Assembly: GCA_965198005.1 (NCBI GenBank)
Contig: CBDAOI010000003.1
Span: 1,056,001 to 1,120,000, forward strand
From: Spirochaetia bacterium
Lineage (GTDB): Bacteria > Spirochaetota > Spirochaetia > SZUA-6 > Bin103
Direction of reading: 5' to 3'
DNA length: 64,000 nt
The translations under genes and the position numbers were made by a program. Below the pieces are notes generated by a model that saw only the letters and a program-made list of their open reading frames with translations, was not told the DNA's origin and made no database searches. This document shows positions 1,066 to 35,241 of this stretch, in pieces. The first letter of the stretch is position 1. Each line of letters starts with the position of its first letter.

Positions 1066-2747
1066 TCCGCGGGCGGGTTCCAGCGCGGCGGCGAGCTGCT
1101 GTCGGCGGGGTCGGTTACCACCTCCACCACCGCCGGCCGCCCGGCGGCCGCGGCCTGCTCCAGCGCGCCCCGGATCTCGGCGGGACGTTCCACCCGGACG
1201 GCGAACGCGCCCATGGCCGCGGCGACCGCGGCCAGGTCCACGTCGTTGAACTTCCACAGCGGGCTGGAATCGGTGCCGGGCACGCGGGCGAACGCCTTGT
1301 CGTCGCCGGCCTTGTCCTGAATCAGGCCGCGGTTGTTGTTGATCACGATGATCACCGGCACGTTCCAGCGCACCGCGGTCTCGATTTCGCCCAGGTGGTA
1401 CCAGAATCCGCCGTCGCCGGTGAAGCACACCACCTGCCGGTCCGGCAGCGCCAGCTGGGCGCCGACCGCGGCCGGCAGTGCCCAGCCCAGGGACCCGGCA
1501 CAGCGCAGGTAGGACTGCCGCGGATGGTTCAGGTCCACCATCGAAGCGGTCCAGATGCCGGCATGGCCGGTGTCCGATACCAGCACCGCGTCGCGGGCGA
1601 GAAACTCGGTGAGCTCCGTGCACAACCGCTCCGGGATGATCGGAACCGCCTCCGACCGGGCGCGCGGCGCCACCTCCGCGCGCCACTCCCGCACCAGGCC
1701 GCGCACCCGTGACAGCCAGTCGGCCCGGCCGCTCCCGCCCTCCACCGCTTCGATCAGGCGCCGGGTGGTGGCCTTCGCGTCGCCGTGCAGCGAGACCTGG
1801 ATCGAATAGTTGCGGCCCAGCTCCGACGGGTCGAGGTCGATCTGAATCACCGGCGTGTCGACGCTCGGTATCTTCCATTCATTGGTTACCTGGCTGCCGG
1901 TGTGGCTGCCGATGAACAGCACCAGGTCCGCCTCGTGCACCACGCGGTTGGCGCACCAGCGCGAGTAGGTGCCGACCACGCCCACCGCCAGCCGGTGCTG
2001 GTCCGGAATCGTGCCCTTGGCGTTGAGCGAGGTGGCGACCGGGATGGACAGCTTCTCGGCCAGCTCCAGCACCTCGTGCTGCGCCTGTGACGAGGTGACG
2101 CCGCCGCCGGCGACGATGACCGGACGCTCCGCTCCCGCCAGCGCCCGCGCCGCCTGCCGCACCGTGTTCGGATCCGCCTCCGGACGAAACGCGGGCCGCC
2201 GGGTGAAGGGCGACTCCACCAGCACCTCGAGGTCCGCTTCACCCTCCATGATTACGTTGCCGGAGATCCCCTGCAGGTCGAGGTGCACCGGTGCGGTGGC
2301 TCCGGTGGTGGCTTCGCGGAACGCCAGCCGCAGCAGGTGCGGAAACTGCTCGACCGTCTCGACCAGTCCGCTGAACTTGGTTACCGGCGCGAACAGCCCG
2401 GCGTGCTCGATCTCCTGGTACGCGTTCCGGAACTGCTCGGCCGGCGTCTTGCGCCCGGTCAGAGCGATGACCGGGGACAGGGCGAGATAGGCGTCCTGGA
2501 GCCCTGCCGCCAGATTGGCGGCACCGACCGATTGGGCCAGACACAGCGCGGGGCGGTTGCACGCCCGCGCGTACCCGTCGGCCATGTAGGCGGCCGCCTT
2601 CTCGCCGTGCGTCACGATGCTGGTGACGCCGCGCGCGCTCAGTTCCGCGAGCCCGAGCGACGCGATTGCGGGCGACACGAATACGTGCGCAACCCCGTAT
2701 GCGTGCAGCGTCTCCGCGAAGAATGCGGCCCCTGTGGTCCGTCCCAT
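1062..2747 (-). CDS. Thiamine-diphosphate-dependent enzyme, acetolactate synthase large-subunit-like
   Basis: 561 aa; HGEKAAAYMADGYAR and a C-terminal GDGG...NN ThDP-binding motif. Substrate not determinable. Confidence 0.9.
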   Translation of the reverse strand: MGRTTGAAFFAETLHAYGVAHVFVSPAIASLGLAELSARGVTSIVTHGEKAAAYMADGYARACNRPALCLAQSVGAANLAAGLQDAYLALSPVIALTGRKTPAEQFRNAYQEIEHAGLFAPVTKFSGLVETVEQFPHLLRLAFREATTGATAPVHLDLQGISGNVIMEGEADLEVLVESPFTRRPAFRPEADPNTVRQAARALAGAERPVIVAGGGVTSSQAQHEVLELAEKLSIPVATSLNAKGTIPDQHRLAVGVVGTYSRWCANRVVHEADLVLFIGSHTGSQVTNEWKIPSVDTPVIQIDLDPSELGRNYSIQVSLHGDAKATTRRLIEAVEGGSGRADWLSRVRGLVREWRAEVAPRARSEAVPIIPERLCTELTEFLARDAVLVSDTGHAGIWTASMVDLNHPRQSYLRCAGSLGWALPAAVGAQLALPDRQVVCFTGDGGFWYHLGEIETAVRWNVPVIIVINNNRGLIQDKAGDDKAFARVPGTDSSPLWKFNDVDLAAVAAAMGAFAVRVERPAEIRGALEQAAAAGRPAVVEVVTDPADSSSPPRWNPPAD

Positions 2748-2779
2748 GGCACCTCCCGTAGCGGCGCATAATACACCGG

Positions 2780-2807
2780 TTGACGTTTTCTCATGAGACC
2801 GTATTAT
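2780..2807 (+). promoter_or_regulatory. Putative sigma70 promoter for the fliM-flhF operon
   Basis: TTGACG(2780-2785)-N16-TATTAT(2802-2807) in an AT-rich divergent intergenic region. Confidence 0.55.
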
Positions 2808-2918
2808 AGAACACTACGTTGCCCGCCCCACGCGGCGGGGACGGGGTCGCTGTTCGTGGGAGCCGCTTTCCCGCCCTGGAAGTTGGCCGAGGCGAACCGC
2901 GAAAACTGGGGGAAATGC

Positions 2919-3914
2919 GTGGACGTTATCAGTCAACGCCGCACGGCGCCGCCGCGGCGCACCGGCGACGCCGGCATCGGTCAGCCGGCTGTCAGGCCGC
3001 TCAGCCTGGGGCGGCCGGAGCACCTGTCGCCCGAACAGATCGCCGGACTGTCGGCGGTGCACGAGGGCTTCGCCCGGCGCGCCGGCGAGGCGCTGTCGGC
3101 GTACCTGCGCAGCCCGGTCCGACTCCACCTGAAGACCGTTCAGCAGCTCTCGTACGAGGAGTGCGCCCGGGCCCTGCCGGATCCCGGCGCCCTGGCCGTG
3201 GTGGAGTTGGAGCCGTTCGCCGGCACGGCGCTGCTGGCGGTCGATCAACCGTTCGCGTTTGCGGCGATAGACCGGCTGCTTGGCGGCCGGGGCGACTCTG
3301 CGGCGCCCGCGCGCGGCCTGAGCGACATCGAGCGCGCGGTAATGGAGAACATCGTGCACCGGCTGATGGCGCCTCTGGCCGCGGCGTGGCAGCCGGTACG
3401 GGCGCTCCGGCCGCGGTTGAGCCGCATCGAAACCGCCCCGGAACAGGCCCGGATCGCCGCGCCGCGGGAGGCCGTGGTGCGGCTGACGTTCGACCTCCGC
3501 CTGCGCGCGGCCGGGACCATGCATTTCCTGATTCCTCTTTCGGCCCTGGCCCCGGTCAGGAGCAGGCTCGGACCACGGTCGTGCGGGCACGCCGAGCGCC
3601 GGGAGGAGCGCGGCGCCGAAGCCGGCGGCCGCGGCGGCGGCCGCGCGCGCTCGCAACGGGCGACGCTCGGTGAGTTGCTGCGGGCGGCGCCGTTGCCGGT
3701 GACCGTGGAGCTCGGGGGCGCCTGCGTACCGTTGCGCGCCATCCTCGAGCTGACGGCGGGCGACGTGCTGCCGCTGGACCGGGTGCGGCCGGGCGACGAG
3801 CTGGCGGTTAAGGTAGGCGGCAGAACGAAGTTCATGGGGCGGCCGGGCGTGGTAGGCGGCCGGCTCGCCGTCCAGATCCGGGCACCGGCGCGGGTCGGGG
3901 GCGGGCCGGAATGA
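2919..3914 (+). CDS. fliM: Flagellar motor switch protein FliM (divergent; CheY-binding N-terminus degenerate)
   Basis: RP..LS.EQI..L...HE.FAR, IDRLLGGRG, LSDIER and a C-terminal SpoA domain. Start taken at GTG 2919 (MDVISQ). Confidence 0.85.
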   Translation: MDVISQRRTAPPRRTGDAGIGQPAVRPLSLGRPEHLSPEQIAGLSAVHEGFARRAGEALSAYLRSPVRLHLKTVQQLSYEECARALPDPGALAVVELEPFAGTALLAVDQPFAFAAIDRLLGGRGDSAAPARGLSDIERAVMENIVHRLMAPLAAAWQPVRALRPRLSRIETAPEQARIAAPREAVVRLTFDLRLRAAGTMHFLIPLSALAPVRSRLGPRSCGHAERREERGAEAGGRGGGRARSQRATLGELLRAAPLPVTVELGGACVPLRAILELTAGDVLPLDRVRPGDELAVKVGGRTKFMGRPGVVGGRLAVQIRAPARVGGGPE

Positions 3915-4273
3915 GTGCCGCCGACGTGCAGCCCATGCAGCTTGCCAGCCTGCAGCCGGAGGCCGAAACCGGCCACCACCGGACGCCGGCCGACATCGGG
4001 TTCCTGAAGGACGTGGACCTGCGGATCACGGTGGAGCTCGGCGGCACCACGCGGACGATCGGGGAGATTCTGGGCCTCGGCACCGGGTCGGTGATCGAGC
4101 TCGACAAGCTGGCGGGCGAGCCGGTCGAGATCCTGGTCAACCGCACGCCGATCGCCCGCGGCGAGGTGGTGGTGATCGACGACGCGTATGGCGTGCGGGT
4201 CACGGAGATCATGGCCGGCGTGCGGATGGGCGACGATGGAGCGGGCAACGGCTCCCGCGTCGAGGCGGGCTAG
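3911..4273 (+). CDS. fliN: Flagellar switch protein FliN (SpoA domain only)
   Basis: DV.LRITVELG, GSVIELDKLAGEPVEILVN, ARGEVVVIDD.YGVRVTEI. Confidence 0.92.
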   Translation: MSAADVQPMQLASLQPEAETGHHRTPADIGFLKDVDLRITVELGGTTRTIGEILGLGTGSVIELDKLAGEPVEILVNRTPIARGEVVVIDDAYGVRVTEIMAGVRMGDDGAGNGSRVEAG

Positions 4274-5003
4274 CGGCCTGCGCACCGTGGGTCGCCGCAG
4301 GCCGGCACGCGCACCCGCGGCACTGGTACTGCTGCTCATCGGGAGCGCGGTGCTTGGGCTGATCGGTCCGCTCGCCGCCCAGGAGCCGCAGCCGTCCACG
4401 CCGGAGCCGGCGGCGGGCGCCGCCGATCCCGCGCGCGACCTGACCCCGCTGCCCGGAACCGGGGAGTCGGCCGCGCTGGCGGTTGCACGCGCTCCCGCCG
4501 GCGGCGCGGCCCCGTCCACCTGGGACTTCGTGCGCATGGTGCTGGTGCTGGCCGCGGTGCTGGCCGCCATCTATCTGGTTTTCCTGTTGGTCAAGCGCAG
4601 CACGTCGGGACGGGTGCGGGAGAACGACCTGATCACCCTGGTCGGCTCGCGCACGCTCGGCGGCGGGCGCCACCTGCACTTGGTGCGGGTGGGTACGTCC
4701 TACTACCTGGTGGGGGCGGCGGACGAGTCGGTCAACCTGATTGCCGAGATTACCGACGGTGAGAGCCTCGACACGCTGAAGCTCGAGCTGTCCACGGCAA
4801 CGGTCGCGGGGCGGCGCAGTTTTGCGGACGTGCTCGGCGAGGCGTTCGGCGGCATCGGCGCGGGCGGCAGCCGGGGCCACGGTCACGGCGTCCTGCTTTC
4901 CGGCGGCGAGGCCGCCGCCGGAAGCGTGCTCGGCCAGCGGCGCCGCGGGGTCCAGAACGTGCACCGTCGACCCGGGCGGGGAGGGGCCGATGCCGGCAGT
5001 TGA
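4236..5003 (+). CDS. fliO: Flagellar biogenesis protein FliO/FliZ
   Basis: TM segment 'FVRMVLVLAAVLAAIYLVFLLVK' followed by 'LGGGRHLHLVRVG..YYLVG....VNLIAEI'; lies between fliN and fliP. Start uncertain. Confidence 0.8.
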   Translation: MERATAPASRRASGLRTVGRRRPARAPAALVLLLIGSAVLGLIGPLAAQEPQPSTPEPAAGAADPARDLTPLPGTGESAALAVARAPAGGAAPSTWDFVRMVLVLAAVLAAIYLVFLLVKRSTSGRVRENDLITLVGSRTLGGGRHLHLVRVGTSYYLVGAADESVNLIAEITDGESLDTLKLELSTATVAGRRSFADVLGEAFGGIGAGGSRGHGHGVLLSGGEAAAGSVLGQRRRGVQNVHRRPGRGGADAGS

Positions 5004-5793
5004 CCGCCGCTGGTGCGCCGGCGGCCTGCTCGCGCTGCTGGTGCTGGGCCAGCTCCTGGCACCGGCCCCGGCGGCCGCCCAGGAGCTGGTGGACGCGCTC
5101 GCCGACGGTGTGGGGTTTCCGTTCGTCGATCTGTCGGTGCGCGACGCCCAGTCGAACCGGGAAGTGCTGCTGTCGCTGCAGTTCCTGCTGCTGCTGGCGG
5201 TGGTGTCGCTGGCGCCTTCCCTGATCGTCCTGATGACCTCGTTCGTGCGGCTGGCGATCGTATTCGACTTGGTCAAGCGGGCCTTGTCGCTGCAGCACGT
5301 GCCGCCGCACCAGGTGCTGATGGGCATCGCCCTGTTTCTCACCCTGTTCATCATGTGGCCCACGCTCGACACGGTGAACCGCACCGCGCTGCAGCCGTTC
5401 GCGCGCGGCGAACTGAACACCGAACAGCTCCTGCAGCGGGCCGAGACGCCGGTGCGGGAGTTCATGTTTCGCCAGCTCGGGGACGACGCCGACAACATCC
5501 GTCTGTTCATGCGCATGCGCGACCTGCCGAAGCCGGCCACGCGCGCCGACGTGCCCACCTACATCCTGATCCCCGCCTTCATCCTGCACGAGCTGACGGT
5601 GGCCTTCAAGATCGGGATTCTGATCTTCGTGCCGTTCGTGATCATCGACCTGGTGGTGGCCACGGCACTGATTTCGATGGGCATCATCGTGCTCCCGCCG
5701 ATGCTGATCTCGCTGCCGTTCAAGCTGATCCTGTTCGTGCTGGTGGACGGCTGGGACCTGATCACGATGCAGGTGATCGCGAGCTTTCGCTGA
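4990..5793 (+). CDS. fliP: Flagellar export gate protein FliP
   Basis: MTSFVR, PPHQVL, LIPAFILHEL..AFKIG, LPFKLILFVLVDGW. Confidence 0.96.
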   Translation: MPAVDRRWCAGGLLALLVLGQLLAPAPAAAQELVDALADGVGFPFVDLSVRDAQSNREVLLSLQFLLLLAVVSLAPSLIVLMTSFVRLAIVFDLVKRALSLQHVPPHQVLMGIALFLTLFIMWPTLDTVNRTALQPFARGELNTEQLLQRAETPVREFMFRQLGDDADNIRLFMRMRDLPKPATRADVPTYILIPAFILHELTVAFKIGILIFVPFVIIDLVVATALISMGIIVLPPMLISLPFKLILFVLVDGWDLITMQVIASFR

Positions 5794-6074
5794 TGGACGG
5801 GGCCATGACAATGGGCGCGGCGGTGACTCTGGCGCGCGACGGCGTGCTGCAGTTGCTGATGATCGCGGGACCGATCCTCGGGGTGAGCGTGATCGTCGGC
5901 CTGGTGATCTCGATTCTCCAGGCGACCACCTCGATTCAGGAGCAGACGCTCACCTTCGTCCCCAAGATCCTCGCCCTGCTCGGCGTGGTATTCCTGCTCG
6001 CGCCCTGGCTCGGCGGTTCGATGGTGGAGTTTACTCGCCGCCTGTACGCGGCGATTCCGGGGATGGCGCTGTGA
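5793..6074 (+). CDS. fliQ: Flagellar export gate protein FliQ
   Basis: GLVISILQATTSIQEQTLTFVPK. Start at ATG 5793 or 5805. Confidence 0.95.
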   Translation: MDGAMTMGAAVTLARDGVLQLLMIAGPILGVSVIVGLVISILQATTSIQEQTLTFVPKILALLGVVFLLAPWLGGSMVEFTRRLYAAIPGMAL

Positions 6075-6916
6075 CCGCGGGCGGACTGCTGGACGGGCTG
6101 GTGACGCTCGACGACTGGTACGTGGGCCTGCTGGTATTTGCCCGGGTGCTCGCCATGATCCAGGTGGCGCCGCTGTTCTCGTCGTCCGCCGTCCCCCAGA
6201 TCGCCAAGTTCGGTCTGGCGCTGTTCCTTACGGTGATTCTGCTGCCGTGGGTGCTGGAGCGCGGCTATCCGGTGCCCGCGTCCGGCGTGCAGTATGCACT
6301 GCTGCTGCTCGGTGAGGCGCTGGTGGGCCTGCTGATCGGGTTTCTGATCTACCTGGCGGTCGCGGCGTTTCAGGTGGCGGGGCAGTTCCTTTCGCTGCAG
6401 CTCGGGTTCGACTCGGCCGAGGTGTTCGACCCGTTCAGCCGCAGCTCGCTGCCGTCGCTCGGCCAGTTGTTCCACCTGCTCGCGCTGCTGGTGTTCCTGA
6501 GCGTCGGCGGGGTGCACCGGTTCATGCTGACCGGCCTGCTCGGTTCGTTCCAGGCGCTGCGTGCCGGCGATCTGGCCGCGCCGGCGCTGCTGGGCACGCT
6601 GTCGCGCGGTCTGGGCACCCTGTTCGCGACCGCGTTCGCCATCGCGTTTCCGGTGTTCGGCGCGCTGGCGCTGGTGTCGGTCGCCCTGGCGCTGTTGGCC
6701 AAGGCGGCGCCGCAGATGAACCTGCTCATTCTGGGCGTGCCGATCGCGACGGCCGCCGGGCTGGTGATCCTGGTGCTGGCGCTGCCGGTGCTGCTGGAGG
6801 CGGTGGCGGCGGTCATCGACGGAGCGTTCGTGGAGTTGCGCCAACTGCTCGCGCGGCTGGCCGCCGAGCCCCGGCCGGCGCTGGATTCGGCCGCGGTCAG
6901 GGGAGGAGCGCTGTGA
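6071..6916 (+). CDS. fliR: Flagellar export gate protein FliR
   Basis: FARV..MI.VAPLFS, AFQVAGQ...QLGF, KAAPQMN. Confidence 0.93.
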   Translation: MTAGGLLDGLVTLDDWYVGLLVFARVLAMIQVAPLFSSSAVPQIAKFGLALFLTVILLPWVLERGYPVPASGVQYALLLLGEALVGLLIGFLIYLAVAAFQVAGQFLSLQLGFDSAEVFDPFSRSSLPSLGQLFHLLALLVFLSVGGVHRFMLTGLLGSFQALRAGDLAAPALLGTLSRGLGTLFATAFAIAFPVFGALALVSVALALLAKAAPQMNLLILGVPIATAAGLVILVLALPVLLEAVAAVIDGAFVELRQLLARLAAEPRPALDSAAVRGGAL

Positions 6917-7992
6917 GCGGCTGGTCCGGCGCGGAACACGAGGGGCGTACCGAGGCCCCCAGCGCCGCCCGACTGCGGGCTGCCCGCAGCGCGGGAGTGG
7001 TGCCGCGCACCACCGAGCTGCCGGCGGCGATGACGCTGGTGGGCGCGGTCGCGGCCCTGGCGGTGCTGGGACGTTCGGCGGTGGCCACGGTGAGGGAGAT
7101 GCTGCGCGTGTTCTTGATGCAGGCTGCCACGCCCGAGGTGGCGGCCACGCCGGCGAGCGCCGAGCTGGCATTCTCCTACCTGCTCCGTCTGGTGCTGCCC
7201 GTGGCCGGGATCGGCTTGGTGGCCGCGCTGGCCGGGAATCTGGTGCAGGTCCGGCCGCGGCTCGCGGTCAGACCGGTTGCGCCCGATTGGCACCGGATCG
7301 TTCCCCGGTTCCTCAGTTACTTCAGGCGTGCGCTGTTTTCCGCCGAGGCGGCCTACCGGCTGGCCGCCACCGCGCTCAAGGTGCTGGTCATCGCGGCGCT
7401 CGCGGGCGCGACCATTCACGCCGTGCTCGAGCGGCTGGCCGGTAGCGTGCGGATGCCGCTCGAAGCCGCCGGCGCACTGTTAGCGGCGGCGGCGCTGCGC
7501 ATGGCCGGCAGCGTGGCGCTGCTGCTGCTGGCCCTGGCGATTGCCGACTATCTGGTGCAGCGCCGGCGCCACCGCCGGGCACTGCGGATGACCCCGCGCG
7601 AGGTGCGCGAGGAGCGCCGCCGGCAGGAGCCCGATCCCCAGGTGCGCCGCCGGCTGCGCGCCCGCATGCGCGAGTTGCTGTCGCGCGACCTGGCGCGGCA
7701 GGTGGCGGGTGCGGCGGCGGTCATCACCGGCGGCGCGCGCTGGGCGGTGGCGGTGCGCTGGACCGGGCACGCCCTGGCGGCGCCGGTGGTGGTGGCCAAG
7801 GGGCTGGACGAGGCCGCCGGCAGGATCCGCGCGGCCGCCGCCGCCCACCCGGTGCCGCTGGTGGAGCGCCCGCAGTTGGCGCGGGTGCTGGCCGAGTACG
7901 TCGAGGTCGGCGACCCGGTCCCCGCCGCGTACTTCCGGCCGCTGGCGGAGGCACTGGCGCGGACCGCACCGGGGGAGGTGCCGGATGGCTGA
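6913..7992 (+). CDS. flhB: Flagellar export switch protein FlhB, lacking the NPTH autocleavage motif
   Basis: RTEAPS..RL, LRMT.REVREE...E.DPQV, APVVVAKG.D, PLVE.P.LAR. The expected VITNPTH reads VITGGAR. Confidence 0.9.
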   Translation: MSGWSGAEHEGRTEAPSAARLRAARSAGVVPRTTELPAAMTLVGAVAALAVLGRSAVATVREMLRVFLMQAATPEVAATPASAELAFSYLLRLVLPVAGIGLVAALAGNLVQVRPRLAVRPVAPDWHRIVPRFLSYFRRALFSAEAAYRLAATALKVLVIAALAGATIHAVLERLAGSVRMPLEAAGALLAAAALRMAGSVALLLLALAIADYLVQRRRHRRALRMTPREVREERRRQEPDPQVRRRLRARMRELLSRDLARQVAGAAAVITGGARWAVAVRWTGHALAAPVVVAKGLDEAAGRIRAAAAAHPVPLVERPQLARVLAEYVEVGDPVPAAYFRPLAEALARTAPGEVPDG

Positions 7993-9997
7993 CGCAAAGA
8001 CCGCCGGCCCGTACGCCTTCAGCGGCTGGCAGCGGCGCAGCGACGTGCTGGTGGCCCTGTTCGTGATCGTGTTCATCCTGATGATGTTGATTCCGCTGCC
8101 GGCAGTGGTGCTCGACCTGTTCATGGCGCTCAACATCTGTCTCGGCCTGCTGGTCATTCTGATCGTGCTCTACACCCGGAGTCCGTTGGAGTTCACCATC
8201 TTTCCGACGCTGCTGCTGCTGGCCACGGTGTTCGGGCTGGCTCTCAACGTCTCGTCGACGCGGCTGATTCTGGCACAGGGCGCGGCCTTCGAGGGTCGCA
8301 TCGTGCGCGCGTTCGGAAGCTTCGTCGTGGGCGCTCCGGGTACCGCCGGCTACGTCATCGGCGCGATCATCTTCACCATGATCATGGCCGTGCAGTTCGT
8401 GGTCATCACCAAGGGCGCCACGCGGGTAGCCGAGGTGGCGGCCCGCTTCACCCTGGACGCCCTTCCCGGCAAGCAGATGGCGATCGACGCGGAGTACAAC
8501 TCCGGCCTGCTGTCGGAAGCGGAAGCGACGCGGCGCAAGAACGAGCTGCGGCGCGAGACCGACTTCTACGGCGCCATGGACGGCGCCTCGAAGTTCGTGT
8601 CCGGGAACGTGCGCGTCGGGGTTCTGATCACGCTGATCAACCTGGTCGGCGGGCTGATCGTGGGCGTCGCGGTGCGCTCCGAGCCCCTGGCCGCGGCGGC
8701 GGGAACCTACGTGTCGCTGACCATCGGCGACGGCCTGGTAACGCAGCTCCCGGCGCTGCTGATTTCCACCGCCACCGGGATCATCGTGACGCGCGCCGTC
8801 TCCGATGCCTCGTTCGGCCGCGACCTGGCGCGCCAGCTTGCGCTGCACCATCGGCCGTTCTACATCGCCGCGGGTTTCCTCGCGGTGCTTGCCCTGCTGC
8901 CCGGCTTTCCCGTGCACGTGTTGCTGCCGCTGGCCGCGGTGCTCGGCTGGTGCGGCCATGCCATCGGCCGCCGGCAGGCGGGCGCCGCCGGCGCCGAACC
9001 ACCAGCCGCCACCGAGCCGGGCCCTGCCGCGCGGGCGGCGTCGCCGCCAGCCGCCGCCGCGCCGGTGGCCCCCGTGTCACCGGTGGCGCCGCCCGATCCG
9101 CTGGCGGTCGAGTTGGGGTATGGACTGGTGCCGCTGGCCGAGGAGGAGGGCGGTACCGACCTGTTGCAGCGGCTGGCCGCCGTGCGCCGCGCCGCGGCGC
9201 AGGAACGCGGCCTGGTGGTGCCGCCGGTTCGGATTGCCGACAACCTGAACCTGCGGCCCACCGAGTATGCCGTCAAGATCCGCGGCGTCGAGGTGGAGCG
9301 CGACCGCCTGCGCGGCGGCGCGCAGGAGCTGGCTGCCCGCCTGACACGGATCATCGAGCGGCGCGCGGCCGACCTGCTCGGTCGAGAAGACGTGAAGTCG
9401 ATGCTCGAGGCGCTCCGGGGGGACTATCCGACCGTGGTCGAAGAAGCCACGGCGACGCTGTCGGTCGGCGAGATTCAGCGCGTGCTGCAGGCGCTGTTGG
9501 CAGAGGGGGTGTCGATACGCGATCTGGTGGCTATTCTCGAGGCGCTCGGCGACTACGCGCCCGAACGGCGGGACACCGGGTTTCTGGTGGAACGGGTGCG
9601 CCGGACACTGGCGCGGCAGATTTCGCAGCAGCACGCGGGCACGGACGGGGTACTGCACGTCCTGACGCTGGCGCCGGACCTGGAACGGCGGGTGATCGAA
9701 GCCGCCGCGGAGGGCGCCGACGAAGGTCCGAACGGCGGTGCGGCGGCCGGCGGCCGCTCGGCGGAGTGGCGGCGGCACTGGGTCGGCGCCCTGGCGGAGG
9801 CGGTCGCGGAGGCCGAGCGGCGGGGGCACCCGCCGGTGGTGTTGTGCCCCGCGCCGGCACGGGCGTGGGTGCGGGCCGCCACCCGGCGCGAGCTCCCGCA
9901 CCTGGTGTGCCTGGCGGACACCGAGCTGGCCGAGGTCGCCGTGACAGCGCTGGCGGAAGTGCAGCCGGAGCGGCCGGCGGGAGAGGGCGGGCGGTGA
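7985..9997 (+). CDS. flhA: Flagellar export protein FlhA with an internal deletion in the cytoplasmic domain
   Basis: RVAEVAARFTLDALPGKQMAIDA, DFYGAMDGASKFV, LTIGDGLV.QLPAL, ELGYGLVPL, LLAEGVSIRDL. ATG 7985 overlaps the flhB end. Confidence 0.95.
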   Translation: MADAKTAGPYAFSGWQRRSDVLVALFVIVFILMMLIPLPAVVLDLFMALNICLGLLVILIVLYTRSPLEFTIFPTLLLLATVFGLALNVSSTRLILAQGAAFEGRIVRAFGSFVVGAPGTAGYVIGAIIFTMIMAVQFVVITKGATRVAEVAARFTLDALPGKQMAIDAEYNSGLLSEAEATRRKNELRRETDFYGAMDGASKFVSGNVRVGVLITLINLVGGLIVGVAVRSEPLAAAAGTYVSLTIGDGLVTQLPALLISTATGIIVTRAVSDASFGRDLARQLALHHRPFYIAAGFLAVLALLPGFPVHVLLPLAAVLGWCGHAIGRRQAGAAGAEPPAATEPGPAARAASPPAAAAPVAPVSPVAPPDPLAVELGYGLVPLAEEEGGTDLLQRLAAVRRAAAQERGLVVPPVRIADNLNLRPTEYAVKIRGVEVERDRLRGGAQELAARLTRIIERRAADLLGREDVKSMLEALRGDYPTVVEEATATLSVGEIQRVLQALLAEGVSIRDLVAILEALGDYAPERRDTGFLVERVRRTLARQISQQHAGTDGVLHVLTLAPDLERRVIEAAAEGADEGPNGGAAAGGRSAEWRRHWVGALAEAVAEAERRGHPPVVLCPAPARAWVRAATRRELPHLVCLADTELAEVAVTALAEVQPERPAGEGGR

Positions 9998-11295
9998 CCA
10001 CCGCGTACTTCAAGGTGCAGGGCACGACCCCGCGTGAGGCGCTCGCCAACATGAAGCGGCTGTATGGACCGGACGCCCGCATACACTCTCACCGCGTGGT
10101 CAAGATCGGAGGACTGTTCGGCCTGTTCAAGCGCGACGGAGTAGAGATTACCGGGTTCGTGGATCCGCCGGCGGCGTACGCCGCGGCGACCGCGTCGGAA
10201 CCGGCCCCGGCCGACGCGGAGCCGGCCGCGGCCCAGCAGCGGTTGGCGTACGAGCAGCGCCGGATCCTGGAGCAGACGCCCTCCGGGGCCGGTCTGCGGC
10301 GGCTGGTAGACGAGGTGGCGGCACTGCGCGCCCGGCTCGACCGCTCGTTGCCGGAGACCGCCGAGGTGACCGTACGGCTCGGTGAGCATCCGTGTCTGCT
10401 CGCATTGGACGCACTGCTGGTGCGCAACGACTTCGCCCCCGGCTACCGCGCGCGGCTGCTCGATCGGGTACGGTCGGAGTTCACCCTGCAGCAGCTTGAG
10501 GACCGGGCCGCCGTGCACCGCTACGTGGCCCTGCAGATCGGCCGTGCGCTGTCGGTGGCGCAACCCTTGACCGGGACCGACGACACCGCCGCCGGCGGGC
10601 CGCTGGTGTGCATCGTGGTCGGTCCGACCGGCGTCGGCAAGACCACCACAATCGCCAAGCTGGCGGCGATCCACGGCCTCGGCAACGGCGCCGGCGAACG
10701 CCGGAACGTGCACATCGTGACGATCGACAACTATCGCATCGGCGCCCGCCAGCAGATCGAGACCTACGGCGAGATCATGCGCATTCCGGTCACCACGGCC
10801 GAAACCGCGGAGGATCTCAAGAAGGCGGTGGCGCTCGGGCGCGACCTGGACCTCATCTTCGTCGACACGGTCGGCCGCAGTCCGGCCGACTACGCCCGCC
10901 TAGGCGAAATGCGCGCCGTGCTGGAGGCAGCCGGCCGGCGCAGCACGACCCAGCTTGCCGTGAGCGCCACCACCAAGCATCCGGACCTCGAGCAGATCCT
11001 GCGCCAGTTCGAGCCGTTCGGATACGACACCGTGATCGTCACCAAGCTCGACGAGACCGCCGCCATCGGCAACGTGCTGTCCGTGCTGGCGGAGCGCCGC
11101 AAGCCGGTCTCCTACCTGTGCGACGGGCAGGTGGTGCCGCAGGACATCGCACGGGCATCGATCGGACGGTTGCTGGTCAGCCTGGAGGGGTTCGAGCTCG
11201 AGCGTGCGGCGCTGGAGCGTGAGTTCGGGACCTTCGGGGAGGCGCCGGCGCCGTCCGCCGGGAAAGAGCGGATGCCGATCTTGACCTCGCCGTGA
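9994..11295 (+). CDS. flhF: SRP-family GTPase FlhF
   Basis: GPTGVGKTTTIAKLAA, D.YRIGA, DTVG, TKLDE, GQ.VPQD. GTG 9994 overlaps the flhA stop. Confidence 0.93.
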   Translation: MTTAYFKVQGTTPREALANMKRLYGPDARIHSHRVVKIGGLFGLFKRDGVEITGFVDPPAAYAAATASEPAPADAEPAAAQQRLAYEQRRILEQTPSGAGLRRLVDEVAALRARLDRSLPETAEVTVRLGEHPCLLALDALLVRNDFAPGYRARLLDRVRSEFTLQQLEDRAAVHRYVALQIGRALSVAQPLTGTDDTAAGGPLVCIVVGPTGVGKTTTIAKLAAIHGLGNGAGERRNVHIVTIDNYRIGARQQIETYGEIMRIPVTTAETAEDLKKAVALGRDLDLIFVDTVGRSPADYARLGEMRAVLEAAGRRSTTQLAVSATTKHPDLEQILRQFEPFGYDTVIVTKLDETAAIGNVLSVLAERRKPVSYLCDGQVVPQDIARASIGRLLVSLEGFELERAALEREFGTFGEAPAPSAGKERMPILTSP

Positions 11296-11309
11296 TTTAT
11301 ACCTACGCT
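11281..11309 (+). promoter_or_regulatory. Putative internal sigma70 promoter for fliA
   Basis: TTGACC(11281-11286)-N17-TACGCT(11304-11309) across the flhF 3' end. Confidence 0.45.
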
Positions 11310-11343
11310 CTCGGAAATTGGGTTGTGTCCGTGGGGCGATGCT

Positions 11344-12168
11344 ATGGCGCGTGACAGCCGGGAGCTAGGCGTGGCAGATCCGGTCCCGGAGGCCGCTGAC
11401 GCCGTTCCGGAAGAAGAGCTGTGGAGGCGCTACCGGCAGCGCCGGGATCCCAAGATACGCGACCACTTCATCCGCCAGTACGCGCCGTTGGTCAAGTACG
11501 TGGCCGGCAAGATGGCGGTGGGCATGCCCGGCAACGTGGAGTTCGACGACTTGGTGGGCTACGGCGTGTTCGGGCTGTTCGACGCCATCAAGAAGTTCGA
11601 TCCGACCAAGCACGTCAAGTTCAAGACCTACGCCGTGACGCGGATTCGCGGAGCGATCTTCGACGAGTTGCGCACCATCGACTGGGTGCCGCGCTCGGTG
11701 CGCCAGAAGGCGCGCGAGGTCGAGGAAGCCGTGCGCACCCTGGAAGCGAAGCTCGGACGCGCCGCCACCGACGCCGAGATCGCCAAGAAGATGAACATGC
11801 CCCCGGACGAGTTCCAGCAGCTCATGCTCAAGATCAGCGGCACCTCGATCCTGTCGCTCAGCGACGTGTGGTACAGCGGTGACGACAATGACCGCATCTC
11901 GGTGGCGGAGAGTATCGAGTCTCCGACCAGCCTCAATCCCGATTCGATCGTGGAGAAGGATGAGATCAAGCGGGTGATCGTCGAGGCAATCGGCGAACTG
12001 TCGGAGAAGGAGCAGAAGGTGCTGGTGCTCTACTATTACGAGGATCTCACGCTGAAGGAGATCGGTGAAGTGCTGGAAGTCACCGAGTCGAGAGTCTCCC
12101 AACTCCACACCAAGGCGATCATCCGACTGCGCGCCAAGCTGACCAATCTGAAACGTGGTGTCGCCTGA
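11344..12168 (+). CDS. fliA: RNA polymerase sigma-28 factor (FliA/WhiG family)
   Basis: [61 protein letters not shown]. Confidence 0.96.
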
Positions 12169-12222
12169 GCCCGTCTAGCCGAGGCGGGGCGTGCGGCGGC
12201 CGCGCATTCCCCGGCCGGGCGG

Positions 12223-12250
12223 TAATGCGCAGGGACGGAATGGTCGATAT
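12223..12250 (+). promoter_or_regulatory. Candidate sigma28-type promoter
   Basis: TAAT-N16-GTCGATAT versus consensus TAAA-N15/16-GCCGATAA/T. Confidence 0.4.
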
Positions 12251-12255
12251 GCAGA

Positions 12256-13581
12256 GTGATGCATTATTCCCGGTACCGCACCCTGGAACGGCAGCAGGTA
12301 GTGCCCCGCAACGGGCACAGCCGATTCGCGCGCGCAGCGCCCCGTGCGCTCCGTAACCAGCAGCCGAGCACGCGCCGCCCGTCCGCCCGCCGGACCCCGA
12401 CTGCGTCCCGCTCCCCGGTCGCACTGCTCGGCGCGACGGCGCGGTCCATGGCCCGCGGCCGGAGCAGCGTGCGCGAGCTGGTGCGCAAGGTCCACGCCGC
12501 CGCGGCCGCACTGTTGTCCCGCATGGTAATCCGGCCGATGCATGCCACCGCCACGGTGCTGCTGGTGGTGGCTGCCCTGACCGCAACCACTCTGGCCCAG
12601 ATCGCCCCCAGCGAGCCCAGCCCACGGCTGTCGCCGCAGGTGTTGACGGACGGACTGGCGACCCCGGCGACGGTGCACTTGGCCGCGGCAGTCCCGGGCA
12701 CGGGCGCAGCGCCGGGTTCGGTCGTGGCATCGTCGGCCGGCGCAGCGACCGGAATCGCTACCGTGGCGACCGCCGGCGCCGCGTTGCCTGCCGAGCCGGC
12801 GAACGCGGCGAACCCGGCGAACCCGGCGGTGTCGACCGCCGCCCAGGGCCTCCCGCCAATCCAGCGGGTTCACCCGCACCAGGTGGTGAGCGGCGATACG
12901 CTGTCGGGGCTGGCGGCGCGGTTCGGGATTACGCTCGATACGATCATCAGTTTCAATGACATCAAGCGTGCCCGCGACCTGCGCGTGGGACGCGAGCTGA
13001 CCATCCCCGCCGCATCGGGAGTGCGCTACGAGGTGCGCCGGGGTGACAGTCTGAGCGGCATCGCGGTGCGCCACGGCGTGGATCTCAGCACCGTGCTCGC
13101 GGCCAATGCGGTGCAGGGCGAGTTGATCACGCCGGGGCAGGTCCTGATGATCCCCGGCGGCCGCCTGGGTGAGAACGAGCTCAACCGCGTGCTCGGACGG
13201 CTGTTCGTGTGGCCGGCCCGCGGGCGACTGACCTCCGGCTACGGTTACCGCAACGATCCGTTCACCGGAATCCGCAAGTTTCACAACGGCATCGACATCG
13301 CCAACGCCCAGGACACCGCGGTGGTAACGGCGATGGGTGGCAGCGTGGCGATGCTGGGTTACAACGGAAACTACGGGCGCTACCTGATCATCCGCCATCA
13401 GGATGGCTTCCAGACTCTGTACGCGCATCTGCACAAGATAGTCGTGGAACGCGGCCAACGGGTGCGTCAGGGACAGCGCGTCGGTTCGATGGGGACCACG
13501 GGATACAGCACCGCCAGTCATCTGCATTTTTCCATCTTCCAGCATGGCCGCCACGTCAATCCGGTGAAGCATCTCGACTGA
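12256..13581 (+). CDS. LysM x2 + M23 peptidase (true start may be later, e.g. ATG 12523)
   Basis: Two GD(T/S)LS.(L/I)A LysM repeats; M23 motifs HNGID, YAHL, HLHF. Confidence 0.9.
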   Translation: MMHYSRYRTLERQQVVPRNGHSRFARAAPRALRNQQPSTRRPSARRTPTASRSPVALLGATARSMARGRSSVRELVRKVHAAAAALLSRMVIRPMHATATVLLVVAALTATTLAQIAPSEPSPRLSPQVLTDGLATPATVHLAAAVPGTGAAPGSVVASSAGAATGIATVATAGAALPAEPANAANPANPAVSTAAQGLPPIQRVHPHQVVSGDTLSGLAARFGITLDTIISFNDIKRARDLRVGRELTIPAASGVRYEVRRGDSLSGIAVRHGVDLSTVLAANAVQGELITPGQVLMIPGGRLGENELNRVLGRLFVWPARGRLTSGYGYRNDPFTGIRKFHNGIDIANAQDTAVVTAMGGSVAMLGYNGNYGRYLIIRHQDGFQTLYAHLHKIVVERGQRVRQGQRVGSMGTTGYSTASHLHFSIFQHGRHVNPVKHLD

Positions 13582-13610: not shown

Positions 13611-13638
13611 CCCATTCTGCACAATTGTGCAGAATGGG
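13611..13638. repeat. Perfect 28-bp palindrome
   Basis: CCCATTCTGCACAA|TTGTGCAGAATGGG is its own reverse complement. Confidence 0.95.
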
Positions 13639-13650
13639 TGGCGGATCGGA

Positions 13651-14655
13651 ATGAGGACTGACGCAAGGCAGCGCCGGCGCGGCCGCGGGAGGCGGTGGCT
13701 GGCGATTCTGGCCGCCGGTTGCGTGGCCGCACTGGTCGTTCAGGCTACCGTGATCGGGCCCACGCGCACGGCGCCGTACGATGAAGGGGAGTACCTGTTG
13801 TTCCCGGGCGATTGGCTGGCCACGACCCGGAACGCCTACCCGCAGGTCGGGGCCGGGGGATTTGCCGCGAGCGCGCACGGGGTCGGCGGCAGCGCCGAGG
13901 GAATCGACCCGCCACCGTTGTCGCTCGCCAGCAAGTACTACCGGGTGCGGCGCGGCGACACCTTTACCGGCATCGCTGCCCGGTTCGGGTTGACCCTGGA
14001 CACGATCGCCTCGTTTAACCGGGACGCCGGGGTCGGGGTGCATCAGCTCGCCATCGGCGAGTTGGTCAAGATTCCGAACCAGGATGGGATCTACCTGCCG
14101 GTAGGCGACGATCTGGCGCAACTCAGCCTGGAACAGGGAGTGTTGCCGGAGACGGTGCTGGTAGCCAACGGCGTCGATCTCGACGAGTTGACGCCGGCCA
14201 CGGAATTGTTCTTTCCCGGCGTCCAGCACTCCGGGCACGAGCTGGCCATGGTGACCGGGGCCGCATTCACGCGTCCGACCGCCGGCTGGGTGAGTTCCCG
14301 GTTCGGTCCGCGGATCGACCCGTTCACCGGCACCCGGAGTTTCCACCACGGGGTCGACCTTGCGGCGCCGCATGGGACCGCGGTGCGCGCCACCCAGGAT
14401 GGCAAGGTAGCCGCCACCGGCCACAGCCGGGTGTTGGGCAAGTACATCATCATCACCCACTACGTGGCCGGGTACTCCTCACTGTACGGCCACCTGCATC
14501 GGGTCTACGTGCGCCGCTCCGAACGGGTGCGCGGCGGTGAGCCGATCGGCACCGTCGGCGCTACCGGGCAGGTGACCGGTCCCCACCTGCACTTCGAACT
14601 ACGGCGCGGCAAGATCCGGCTCGACCCCGCGCAGTTCATCTCCGGTCTCCGCTGA
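13651..14655 (+). CDS. LysM + M23 peptidase
   Basis: N-terminal TM, GDTFTGIA LysM, HHGVD, YGHL, GPHLHFE. Confidence 0.9.
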   Translation: MRTDARQRRRGRGRRWLAILAAGCVAALVVQATVIGPTRTAPYDEGEYLLFPGDWLATTRNAYPQVGAGGFAASAHGVGGSAEGIDPPPLSLASKYYRVRRGDTFTGIAARFGLTLDTIASFNRDAGVGVHQLAIGELVKIPNQDGIYLPVGDDLAQLSLEQGVLPETVLVANGVDLDELTPATELFFPGVQHSGHELAMVTGAAFTRPTAGWVSSRFGPRIDPFTGTRSFHHGVDLAAPHGTAVRATQDGKVAATGHSRVLGKYIIITHYVAGYSSLYGHLHRVYVRRSERVRGGEPIGTVGATGQVTGPHLHFELRRGKIRLDPAQFISGLR

Positions 14656-20930: not shown

Positions 20931-22967
20931 TCAGCGGCCGGCTGCCGCCGCGGCAGCCTGGGATCGTTTGATCACGTCATCGGCGAGACGTCCGGTCACC
21001 GGCGCGTATTCGGCGAACTCGACCTCGAACGACCCCGTACCCGAGGTCATCGACTTGAGATCGATGGCGTAGCGCAACAGTTCCGCCTGCGGCACCAGCG
21101 CCTTGACCTCGAGCATGCCGCCGCCGATCGGTTCCTGGCCCTGAATGCGTCCGCGCCGCCCGCTCAGGTCCGACAGCACGTCGCCCAGATAATGCTCTTC
21201 GACCGAGACCGTAAGGTTGGAAATCGGCTCCAGCAGCACCGGCCGGGCCTTGCCCAGCGCGTCGCGCAGCGCCCCGCGCGCCGCCAGCGAGAAGGCCAGC
21301 TCGGACGAGTCGACCGAGTGCTCCCTGCCGTCCACCAGCGTCACCTCGATTCCCATCACCGGGTACCCGGCCAGCACGCCGCTGGTCATTCCTTCGCGGA
21401 GCCCTTTCTCGACTCCGGGAATGTAGCCGCGTGAGATGGCGCCGCCGAAGATCTGGTTGACGAACTGGAACTCTTCGCCGCCCCGTGGCACCGGCTTGAC
21501 CTTGATCTCGACCTTGGCGTATTGGCCGTGGCCGCCGGTCTGTTTCTTGTGCTGATACTCGGCCGCCGCCGATCCCGCGATCGTCTCGCGGTAGCCGACC
21601 CGCGGGACCTTGGTCTCGACCTCGATCTTGGCGGCGCGCTTGATCTTGTCCAGCACCACGGTGAGCTGGAGTTCGCCCATGCAGGACGCCACGTTCTCGC
21701 GCGTCTCTCCGTTGTAGGCGACCTTGAAGGTCGGATCTTCCTCCCCGGCGCGGGCCAGGAACTGGCCGAGCTTGTCGTCGTCCTTCTTGGAAGCCGCCGC
21801 CACCGTGACCGCGTGCACCGGCTGCGGCAGATCCAGCGGAGGATAACTGACGTCCGACCCCTGGGCCAGAGTGTCTCCCGTGGCGGCGGTCGACAGCTTG
21901 GTGAGGACGCCGACGTCGCCGGTTGCCAGGGCGGGGGTCTCCGTCAGTTTGCCCCCTTGCAGCAGGTACACCTTCGAAATCCGTTCCTTCTTGCGGTCAC
22001 GCTGGTTGGTCAACTCGGTGTCCGGCTTGAGCGTGCCCTGCATCATCCTGATCCACGACAGCTTGCCCGAGTACTGGTCGAGGCTGGTCTTGAACACGAA
22101 CGCCTCCGGACCGTCCGCGGCGTCGGCGGCGGACGCGTCCGGGGCCGGCGCCGCGAGCTGTACCAGGTCGAGCACGCTGGTGACGCCGGCGCCGGCGGTC
22201 ACGGCGCCCGCTACCACCGGCACCACCGCCCCGGACCGCAGGGCAATGGCGAGACCGGTGCGGATCTCTTCGTCGCTCAGGGTTTCCTCATCGAGGTATT
22301 TCTCCATCAGCACGTCGTCGCCCTCGGCGGCTCCCTCGATGAGATCCTGGCGGTACTGCTCCACCTCGTCGGCCAGCTCGGACGGCACGTCGGCCGCGGC
22401 TTCCCGTCCGTCGTCCTGCACCAGCGCCGTGCCGCGGAGCAGGTCCACCACCCCGGAGAACCCCGCGCCGGCCCCGATCGGAACGGCCACCGGGACGAAG
22501 GTGCCGGGCAGTTTCGCGCGCAGATCGGCGAGCGTGTCGGCGAAGCTGGCGTGCTCCTTGTCCATCTGATTGACGAACACGATCCGCGGCTTGGCCGCGG
22601 CCTCGAGGCGGCGCCACAGCTTGGCGGTCTCGATCTGGACGCCCACGTCGGCGCCGACCGTCACGATCGCGGTTTCGGCCACGTGCAGCGCCGCCACCGC
22701 CTCCCCGATGAAGTCGGCCGAGCCGGGGGTGTCGAGCAGGTTGACCTTGGCGCCATTCCACTCGAGGTGCCCGAGGGCGGTGTGAATCGAGATCCCGCGC
22801 GCTATCTCTTCCTCGGTGCGGTCGCTGACCGACTTGCCGGCGTCCACCGGCGCGAACTTGGGCACCTCGCCGCCGCGCACCAGCGCCAGTTCCATGAGCG
22901 ATGTCTTTCCCGTGCCGCCGTGACCGATGATCGCGACGTTGCGGATGTCGGAAGAAGCGATGCTCAT
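20931..22967 (-). CDS. fusA: Elongation factor G paralogue (EF-G II type: divergent G domain, canonical domain IV loops)
   Basis: GHGGTGKT, RGISI, DTPG, NQMD, MGELQL, KKQTGGHGQY, HSVDSS; AAGGAG SD before ATG 22967. Confidence 0.92.
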   Translation of the reverse strand: MSIASSDIRNVAIIGHGGTGKTSLMELALVRGGEVPKFAPVDAGKSVSDRTEEEIARGISIHTALGHLEWNGAKVNLLDTPGSADFIGEAVAALHVAETAIVTVGADVGVQIETAKLWRRLEAAAKPRIVFVNQMDKEHASFADTLADLRAKLPGTFVPVAVPIGAGAGFSGVVDLLRGTALVQDDGREAAADVPSELADEVEQYRQDLIEGAAEGDDVLMEKYLDEETLSDEEIRTGLAIALRSGAVVPVVAGAVTAGAGVTSVLDLVQLAAPAPDASAADAADGPEAFVFKTSLDQYSGKLSWIRMMQGTLKPDTELTNQRDRKKERISKVYLLQGGKLTETPALATGDVGVLTKLSTAATGDTLAQGSDVSYPPLDLPQPVHAVTVAAASKKDDDKLGQFLARAGEEDPTFKVAYNGETRENVASCMGELQLTVVLDKIKRAAKIEVETKVPRVGYRETIAGSAAAEYQHKKQTGGHGQYAKVEIKVKPVPRGGEEFQFVNQIFGGAISRGYIPGVEKGLREGMTSGVLAGYPVMGIEVTLVDGREHSVDSSELAFSLAARGALRDALGKARPVLLEPISNLTVSVEEHYLGDVLSDLSGRRGRIQGQEPIGGGMLEVKALVPQAELLRYAIDLKSMTSGTGSFEVEFAEYAPVTGRLADDVIKRSQAAAAAAGR

Positions 22968-23045
22968 GGCTGTGATCTCCTTGCAGGCACGTTCGGGGTG
23001 CGCGGCGCGTCGCTCGGGGCGGGGCGACCGGCGCACCGACTCCAC

Positions 23046-23074
23046 ATCGTAGACCGGCGCGAACGGCTTGTCAA
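23046..23074 (-). promoter_or_regulatory. Putative sigma70 promoter of the EF-G II gene
   Basis: Minus strand TTGACA-N17-TACGAT. Confidence 0.65.
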
Positions 23075-23215
23075 CCGACCGGATCGAACTGGCCATGCCT
23101 GACGAAACCGCACACGACGGGGAGTCGCCTTCGATCATCCAACGGTTACCGAGTCCGCTACACCACGTCGTACATGCGCTGTCCTCCGTGCTGGCCCATC
23201 GGTCTGACGGCCGCC

Positions 23216-28724: not shown

Positions 28725-28733
28725 GGGACCCGG

Positions 28734-35219: not shown

Positions 35220-35241
35220 CTCCGGAGTCTGTCGGCTGACC

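Follow-up and report, generated by a model that had tools for sequence, protein, structure and literature searches.

A flagellar export gate retained in a spirochaete genome with no recognised flagellin, rod, hook or export ATPase genes

Why would a bacterium in whose genome no flagellin, rod, hook or export ATPase genes were found keep an intact operon for the flagellar export gate? The question is raised by a stretch of 64,000 nucleotides (nt) from a Spirochaetia bacterium (assembly GCA_965198005.1, contig CBDAOI010000003.1, positions 1,056,001 to 1,120,000), hereafter the window, where ten plus-strand genes, fliM-N-O-P-Q-R-flhB-flhA-flhF-fliA, form one overlapping operon over positions 2919-12168. 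A preliminary description, made from the letters alone, saw in this operon a candidate repurposed type III secretion machine with lesions in FlhB, FlhA and FliM, an interpretation that our analysis partly supports. The lesions are real and conserved, and the genes are under purifying selection. Our favoured explanation, to which we give about even chances, is that the cluster is the core left over from the periplasmic flagellum of a spirochaete lineage that builds no axial structure or motor, and that selection keeps it for a role other than motility.

The genome, G000, consists of four contigs (4.89 Mb, 70% guanine-cytosine (GC) content, 90.4% complete). It was compared with 40 relatives: 23 from its own family f1 (ten other members of genus g1 and 13 of genus g2) and 17 flagellated out-groups from seven other families of the same order, with G031 as the main reference out-group. 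Motif and alignment comparisons of FlhB, FlhA, FliM and FliP used four of the out-groups. The window itself has 70% GC and its raw lists of open reading frames (ORFs) are rich in spurious long frames; real genes were chosen by Pfam matches together with third-position GC, and named by Pfam matches above curated cut-offs. The promoter and the genes of the operon are as follows (lengths in amino acids, aa).

2780..2807, plus strand: sigma-70-like promoter TTGACG-16-TATTAT, 10 of 12 positions matching, the one such site in the region
2919..3914, plus strand: fliM, 331 aa, FliM and FliMN_C domains, GGXG motif kept, N-terminal peptide that binds CheY-P lost
3911..4273, plus strand: fliN, short form of 120 aa, Pfam FliN
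4236..5003, plus strand: fliO, Pfam FliO, start uncertain (4236 or 4287)
4990..5793, plus strand: fliP, Pfam FliP
5793..6074, plus strand: fliQ, Pfam FliQ
6071..6916, plus strand: fliR, Pfam FliR
6913..7992, plus strand: flhB, full length, Pfam FlhB, GGAR in place of NPTH
7985..9997, plus strand: flhA, 670 aa, Pfam FHIPEP, transmembrane domain highly conserved, domain D2 missing
9994..11295, plus strand: flhF, SRP-type GTPase (Pfam SRP54-type), G motifs intact (GPTGVGKTT, DTVGR, TKLDE)
11323..12168, plus strand: fliA, sigma-28 type, Pfam sigma-70 r2/r3/r4, start at 11323 or 11344

Each of the ten genes matched its own Pfam family above the curated cut-off. At seven junctions (fliM/N, fliO/P, fliP/Q, fliQ/R, fliR/flhB, flhB/flhA and flhA/flhF) neighbouring genes share 1-14 nt, in agreement with the frame-intact operon behind its own promoter that had been proposed. 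The promoter is well placed but statistically weak, as a shuffled 10-kb region gave 0.5 ± 0.8 such sites against the one real site. The fliM start is likely GTG 2919, which is preceded by a GGGGGA Shine-Dalgarno sequence, and not ATG 2793, because the latter falls inside the promoter site.

Two of the three lesions are in FlhB and FlhA. The autocleavage motif NPTH, found in all four out-group FlhB sequences (VVITNPTH), is replaced in the window protein by GGAR (AVITGGAR; residues 273-276, nt 7729-7740). None of the ten FlhB sequences from g1 has the motif: all ten lack N, P, T and H at the site, and each has an Arg where the His would be. According to the cited part of PMC7911332, cleavage of NPTH between Asn269 and Pro270 is needed for the switch to late substrates, and an FlhB(N269A) mutant secretes none of them. 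In FlhA, Pfam profile positions 404-454 are unmatched, and in the alignment the protein has about 48-51 residues fewer than those of the four out-groups and of genus g2. When it was aligned with solved FlhA chains, residues 445 and 449 paired with 436 and 488 of one chain, and 438 and 448 with 428 and 487 of another; the junction lies at residues 441-453 (nt 9305-9343). The missing stretch agrees with the boundaries of D2, which we take to be about 435-483, and spans Pro-442, Asp-456 and Phe-459 in Salmonella numbering. All three are placed by PMC8166844, in the part cited, within or next to the hydrophobic dimple, a site between D1 and D2 where chaperone complexes of FlgN, FliS and FliT dock. 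Of the canonical cytoplasmic region of FlhA (FlhA-C; D1-D4 including the dimple), D2 is absent. A structure prediction, as the preliminary description had recommended, gave a confident FlhA-C fold without D2 (pLDDT 87.6, pTM 0.79), with D1, D3 and D4 predicted to be folded and a match to FlhA-C crystal structures (probability 1.0, TM-score about 0.56).

The third lesion is in FliM. Out-group proteins start MTEVLSQDEIDQLL, a stretch reduced in the window protein to DVISQ at most, and the LSQDEIDQLL peptide is absent from all eight aligned g1 sequences, whose N-termini are unrelated and variable. The GGXG motif is retained. FliN, at 120 aa, is short compared with the out-group FliY of 370 aa, whose CheX/CheC-like N-terminal part it lacks. 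All three alterations that had been proposed (FlhB GGAR, the FlhA D2 deletion and the loss of the FliM peptide) are thus borne out by the alignments. The accompanying claim that the gate motifs are well conserved holds for most of them, except that the Met loop of FliP, on which the preliminary description did not remark, reads MGIIVLPP in the window (nt 5677-5700) and MGMIMLPP in the four out-groups. The GIIV form occurs in 12 of 12 family f1 sequences, Ile and Val having replaced the two Met of what is presumed to be the gate loop.

As a side observation on the same proteins, the FliM middle domain and the FliN C-terminal domain appear to be fused in G001, G005, G006 and G007, in an ORF of about 285-380 aa that has neither FliM's own C-terminal domain nor the N-terminus of FliN.

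What else of a flagellum does the genome encode? We queried the whole of G000 by tblastn (E ≤ 1e-3) with 34 ORFs from the canonical flagellar operon region of G031. Those named by Pfam were FlgB, FlgC, FliE, FliF, FliG, FliH, FliI, FliK, FlgD, FlbD, MotA, MotB, FliL, FliY, an FlhG-type protein, FapA and CheW, while FlgE was named from a rod/hook C-domain search. Twenty of the 34 had no match, among them FlgB, FlgC, FliE, FliH, FliK, FlgD, FlgE, FlbD, MotA, MotB, FliL, FapA and CheW. The FlhG-type query hit only a ParA-like gene of 33% identity, and the FliI query matched nothing except subunits of F-type ATPase, about 30% identical. Likewise, the best match of the FliI/YscN-family model in G000 (215.7 bits, against a cut-off of 379.5) is the F-type ATPase, and a FliI-like candidate within the window (88.7 bits, 38940-39683) proved to be Rho; G000 carries both F-type and V-type ATPases. 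Neither Flagellin_N nor Flg_bbr_C had a Pfam match in G000; FliD and the spirochaete collar proteins had no search of their own. The CheW, FliH, FliJ and FliS models found nothing in five genomes (G000, three closed g1 genomes and one of g2). Two MotA_ExbB matches exist in G000, neither of which is matched by the out-group MotA. In sum, these searches recovered from G000 no axial proteins, no stators with chemotaxis input and no canonical FliH/FliI/FliJ ATPase complex.

Several components are nevertheless present outside the operon. FliF, with YscJ_FliF and YscJ_FliF_C domains, lies at C3:939438, 117 kb from the operon, and an orphan FliG with its N, M and C domains at C4:1468519, so that the genome encodes an MS ring (FliF) and, together with the FliM and FliN of the operon, a C ring. 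FlhA is single copy. The only recognised flagellar export substrate family found is FlgM (C3:180104, 94 aa, 34.3 bits, above the Pfam cut-off). The preliminary description had expected FliF, FliG, FliH and FliI elsewhere in the genome, which proved right for the first two; FliH and FliI were not found, nor was FliJ. It had also expected flagellin, FliK, MotAB, FliS and che genes to be missing, and had named a second canonical flhA as evidence against it; the searches recovered no flagellin, FliK, MotAB, FliS or CheW, no rod/hook proteins and no second flhA. By descent the complex belongs to the flagellar export gate, given that FliP, FliQ, FliR, FlhB and FHIPEP all score above their cut-offs in a conserved gene order; the genes known as CORE (FliO/P/Q/R, FlhB and FlhA) are all in the window. 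No injectisome was recognised, as there is no fliI_yscN-family ATPase and the gate protein is of the FlhA type, with no search made for secretin or needle proteins. The FlhA of G000 is most similar to the flagellar FlhA of spirochaetes, and its nearest homologues are named Spirochaetia or Spirochaetales, which fits the spirochaete origin suggested earlier.

The surroundings of the orphan fliG (C4:1458500-1478499) comprise a giant ORF of about 2,380 aa on one side and DUF1223, a cyclophilin-FKBP fusion and a V-type ATPase operon on the other.

We then asked how these features are distributed among relatives. All 17 out-groups have 3-5 flagellin-domain matches, five rod/hook C-domain matches, FliI, FliF and FliG, and in all of them the FlhA match is split by about 157 nt at the position of D2, meaning that D2 is kept. 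Flagellated relatives do not share the lesions, going by D2 in these 17 and by NPTH and the FliM peptide in the four that were aligned. Within family f1, flagellin and the rod/hook C-domain occur in only one of 23 genomes (G002) and FliI in none; closed genomes are among those with the losses. The ten other g1 genomes retain FlhA (nine), FliF (nine), FliG (ten) and FliA (nine), and in most of them fliF lies directly upstream of fliM, unlike in G000. The D2 deletion, seen as one continuous FlhA match over the junction, is present in seven of them (G001 and G003-G008). In G009 (7843-9303 of its locus, minus strand) and G010 (7564-8940, minus strand) FlhA is only 489 and 459 aa long; it consists of the transmembrane domain, the linker and part of D1, and ends right before flhF. 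D2 is likewise absent from all ten of the nearest FlhA sequences in metagenomes, four of which (548-588 aa) have no D4 either.

Genus g2 is reduced differently. Three of its 13 genomes (G011, G012 and G015) keep fliF, fliO-P-Q-R, flhB, flhA and fliA. Their FliF has no C-terminal FliG-binding tail and their FlhB (261-280 aa) no cytoplasmic C-domain, while FlhA contains D2; FliM, FliN, FlhF and FliG were not found in them with the queries used. The other ten have neither FlhA nor FliF. FliA is nevertheless present in all 13, and full-length FlgM orthologues in 12, including the ten gate-less genomes. G002, at 81% completeness in 510 contigs, has flagellin genes and an hslV-hslU-flgB-flgC run that reaches a contig end (C79). 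Contamination as the source of these contigs was rejected, as their GC content is 64-66% against 66-68% in the largest contigs of that genome. In an unrooted single-gene tree of HslU, G002 is sister to the rest of g1 (support 93/94). We regard it as a probable basal member with a flagellum and an unassembled main operon; if so, the losses in g1 and g2 would be independent.

Upstream of flgM, sigma-70-like hexamers (TTGACG with TACAAT, TATAAT or GAATAT) were seen by eye within 160 nt in the non-flagellated genomes, and in g2 the leader, also judged by eye, has about 100 conserved nt (CCTCAAGAGGGGGAGGCC...CAGAACAGTGCGGTG). In G002 the corresponding region looks sigma-28-like instead. A strict whole-genome scan of G000 for TAAA-N14-16-[GC]CGAT[AT][AT] gave a single match (C2:741174, minus strand) with no convincing downstream gene, and no sigma-28 regulon could be derived. 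Around that site third-position GC is unusually low (0.46-0.70) and no ORF is convincing; the stretch may be a foreign island.

To see how selection acts on the retained genes, we estimated the ratio of nonsynonymous to synonymous substitution rates (dN/dS, NG86) on the closest pairs (G005/G006, G003/G004, G001/G007 and G009/G010). The values were 0.03-0.13 for FliA, 0.09-0.15 for the transmembrane part of FlhA, 0.14-0.16 for FliQ, 0.14-0.25 for FliP, 0.18-0.27 for FlhF, 0.24-0.27 for FliR and 0.25-0.34 for FliF. They were about 0.30 for the cytoplasmic part of FlhA (0.46 for the truncated pair), 0.27-0.46 for FlhB, 0.31-0.45 for FliO, 0.26-0.58 for FliN and 0.31-0.67 for FliM. Non-flagellar genes of the same loci gave 0.09-0.34, with one at 0.66. 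Pure decay, for which a ratio near 1 had been named as the sign, is ruled out by these values, which are compatible with partial relaxation.

A second comparison used identity to G031. Proteins of other flagellated families and of G000 are, respectively, 78% and 79% identical to it for FliA, 68-73% and 62% for FliP, 67-68% and 60% for FliQ, 74-76% and 57% for FlhA, 87-91% and 59% for FliG, 86% and 58% for FliN, 60% and 35% for FlhB, and 84% and 36% for FliM, with HslU as a yardstick at 75% and 68%. The gate core is evolving at nearly the baseline rate. Conversely, the C ring and FlhB changed fast once the flagellum had been lost.

Upstream of the operon lies a thiamine pyrophosphate (TPP) enzyme on the minus strand, with no motAB, fliL, rod or hook genes in that flank. 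There is also no flhG at the locus, where flhF ends at 11295 and fliA starts at 11323 or 11344; in G031 a MinD/ParA-type FlhG and one further ORF sit between the two. Both absences had been noticed before and stand. Directly after fliA are two LysM-M23 peptidoglycan peptidase genes (12256-13581 and 13627-14655), which are syntenic in g1 and g2, whereas G031 has fapA and cheW in their place. The rest of the downstream flank is housekeeping (SecA, elongation factor G (EF-G) paralogues, tRNA synthetases and Rho). A search for a conserved partner gene adjoining the cluster found none: the neighbours are hslVU, upstream of the cluster in relatives, the two peptidases, and an ORF of 149 aa near the cluster in relatives that is absent from G000 and weakly similar to an out-group ORF matching DUF6115. 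Further downstream in the window are two EF-G-type and two apolipoprotein N-acyltransferase (Lnt) paralogues (20931-23249, 26667-28733, 35191-36954 and 40479-42140).

Some information on habitat came from contigs of four RNA-library runs (X11, X12, X14 and X15) of one study with a sponge-metagenome label. Pieces of 166-418 nt with 0-1 differences match positions 2000-13000 of the window and cover fliM, fliN, fliP, fliQ, fliR, flhA, fliA and the downstream peptidase gene, though DNA carry-over is possible. Gaps between the contigs over the operon (e.g., 4202-4935 and 10074-11174) are uninformative, and contig depth cannot rank the genes. The organism was present in those samples, which give a weak hint of transcription, and the clade may be sponge-associated. 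Supplementary tables aside, we found no literature describing such a reduced set in spirochaetes, and the text of a sponge-spirochaete paper (PMC11656744), leaving out its supplements, has no words beginning 'motil' or 'flagell'.

How might the retained proteins work together? What we propose for assembly, energy source, destination and cargo is modelled on the roles of the orthologues in flagellated bacteria. FlhF-GTP, with no FlhG to turn it off, would position FliF in the membrane, where FliF would form an MS ring around a FliPQR-FlhB gate assembled with the aid of FliO. Beneath the gate would sit a ring of FlhA without D2, and FliG, FliM and the short FliN would make up a simplified C ring that has neither CheY input nor stators, the overall product being a rod-less basal body. 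Because FliH, FliI and FliJ were not found, transport would run on proton-motive force alone; in Salmonella, ATPase activity is dispensable for type III export (PMC4230889, in the part cited). As FliE and the rod are also missing from the search results, the channel would lead to the periplasm. With FlhB uncleavable and the D1-D2 chaperone dimple gone, we would expect a single constitutive mode with no chaperoned late substrates. Most likely, the gate would still pass a small set of unchaperoned proteins to the periplasm. The preliminary description called such a machine locked in early mode, which does not fit: it describes no actual export programme, and the early rod/hook substrates are gone too. 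That the gate has been repurposed is plausible and unproven. In its fullest version, which we hold tentatively and think somewhat unlikely, the MS ring, simplified C ring and gate would by themselves make up a naturally occurring minimal machine for type III export. Proton-motive force would power it with no ATPase, it would have no rod or needle, no specificity switch and no chaperone dock, and its exported proteins would go to the periplasm of a non-motile, probably sponge-associated spirochaete.

A number of points weigh against a retained export function. We identified no cargo, and none of the canonical substrates other than FlgM was found. FlhA-C, which canonical export needs, is trimmed further in G009, G010 and four of the ten nearest metagenome sequences, and the gate is dispensable in the ten g2 genomes that have no FlhA or FliF. 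The C-ring genes and FlhB are under relaxed constraint. Open frames are weak evidence in such GC-rich genomes, where long spurious ORFs abound, and the genome itself is about 90% complete. NG86 is also a crude estimator at 70% GC; it tends to underestimate dS under strong third-position GC bias, in which case values below 1 would be conservative. Finally, FlgM is a late substrate that uncleavable FlhB does not export in Salmonella (PMC7911332, in the part cited).

These points leave room for other explanations, of which stepwise decay is a rather doubtful but live one: the cluster would be a disappearing relic that does little or nothing today, its purifying selection being residual or reflecting the cost of misassembled membrane complexes, and its gate genes simply the last to go. 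It stays alive because the family has species with a further-trimmed FlhA-C or FlhB-C, or with no gate. The series is graded, from the full set (out-groups and probably G002) through the rings and gate of g1 and the C-ring-less remainder in three g2 genomes to the ten with no gate; the eroded domains vary by lineage (D2, D4, D2-D4, FlhB-C and the FliM-FliN fusion), and dN/dS is highest in FliM, FliN, FliO and FlhB. Yet the ratios of FliP, FliQ, the transmembrane part of FlhA, FlhF and FliF are within the range of neighbouring housekeeping genes, and the extracted orthologues are all open frames, with no frameshift or stop across nine genomes despite dS of up to about 0.5-1.0. The deletions are clean, in frame and of whole domains, and they leave an FlhA-C that is predicted to be folded. 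If G002 is flagellated and within the genus, g1 and g2 may moreover have retained the same core independently.

An unlikely alternative is that FliF, FliPQR and the transmembrane parts of FlhB and FlhA serve as a membrane platform and not in secretion, for membrane organisation or intercellular membrane structures, much as CORE is reported to be required for nanotube formation irrespective of the other flagellar parts. CORE-dependent nanotubes have been reported in mutants without flagellin, flgB-fliF or fliI, and bacteria with CORE genes but without most other flagellar genes have been named (PMC6456723, in the part cited). Such a role would suit the best conservation being in transmembrane parts (FlhA, FliP and FliQ), the dispensability of cytoplasmic substrate-handling domains in several lineages, the minimal g2 set of CORE plus FliF, and the peptidoglycan hydrolase genes that adjoin fliA. 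It does not account for the FliG, FliM, FliN and FlhF kept in g1. The part of CORE in nanotubes is, moreover, reportedly disputed. A 2026 preprint, in the portion cited, mentions refuting 'a previous claim' (10.64898/2026.07.27.740770). Least probable of all, and in our view very improbable, is that the gate persists for the sole purpose of exporting the anti-sigma factor FlgM, which would free FliA (sigma-28) to control non-flagellar genes. Both proteins are retained in G000, FlgM is the sole recognised export substrate family and fliA ends the gate operon, but we demoted this explanation because FliA and FlgM persist without the gate across the family and so do not co-vary with it. In addition, the chaperone dock is deleted, FlgM belongs to the late substrates that FlhB(N269A) fails to export (PMC7911332, in the part cited), and the upstream hexamers of flgM in g1 and g2 are sigma-70-like, not sigma-28-like, by eye.

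The lesions strike parts that serve late substrates, switching and chemotactic control, in a set kept across about nine species, and they flag a loss of motility in a large-genome spirochaete clade. This makes the family a natural experiment on which parts of the gate serve what, on whether type III gates lacking an ATPase and domains of FlhA-C can function or be of any use, and on how secretion systems might arise from flagella. If the minimal machine exists as proposed, it would represent, in a living organism, the 'flagellum stripped to its secretion core' that has been postulated as a stage between flagella and other secretion systems. Its relatives would then supply natural deletion mutants in series, with FlhA lacking D2, D2 and D4, or D2 to D4, and FlhB lacking its C-domain.

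Flagellar export genes have been described before in bacteria without flagella; the present case is unusually clean and reduced. Buchnera, to which the preliminary description likened the locus, keeps its rod, hook and FliH/I genes. In G000, by contrast, the searches recovered no rod, hook, FliE or ATPase complex; FlhA has lost D2 and FlhB its NPTH motif, and at 4.9 Mb (70% GC) the genome is a large one. The type III flagellar apparatus of Buchnera has 15-28 proteins without fliCD; its filament loss is linked to symbiosis, basal-body and export genes are kept, and it is a proposed protein exporter whose function is undemonstrated (PMC3246468, in the part cited, citing Maezawa 2006 and Toft & Fares 2008). 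The analogy is therefore loose: it holds for filament loss with export genes kept and fails on the rod, hook and ATPase genes. Lysobacter enzymogenes OH11 is also non-flagellated, expresses its remaining flagellar type III secretion genes and reportedly exports non-flagellar proteins through them, but it keeps FlgD and FliI, and hence hook-stage parts and an ATPase, and deletion of FliI blocks secretion (PMC7688988, in the part cited). Neither protein was found in G000. In Myxococci, Chloracidobacterium thermophilum and Succinatimonas, export-gate genes outlast most flagellar genes as they do here; these CORE-only species appear in the cited part of PMC6456723 as entries in a homology table with no domain-level analysis, whereas g1 also keeps the MS and C rings, FlhF and FliA, with mapped lesions and a graded series in one family.

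Salmonella laboratory mutants offer parallels to the single lesions. A fliHI deletion still exports without the ATPase (PMC4230889), the uncleavable FlhB(N269A) blocks late substrates (PMC7911332), and FlhA dimple mutants at D456, F459 and T490 have impaired chaperone docking and raised hook-type secretion (PMC8166844), each according to the part of the source cited. G000 differs from them in that the lesions are combined in nature, D2 is wholly deleted instead of mutated at single positions, and no axial substrate is left. Compared with these systems, what is new is the extent of the reduction (no ATPase, rod or hook found), the excision of a whole FlhA domain together with loss of the FlhB motif and the FliM peptide, the spirochaete host, and a deletion series provided by nature.

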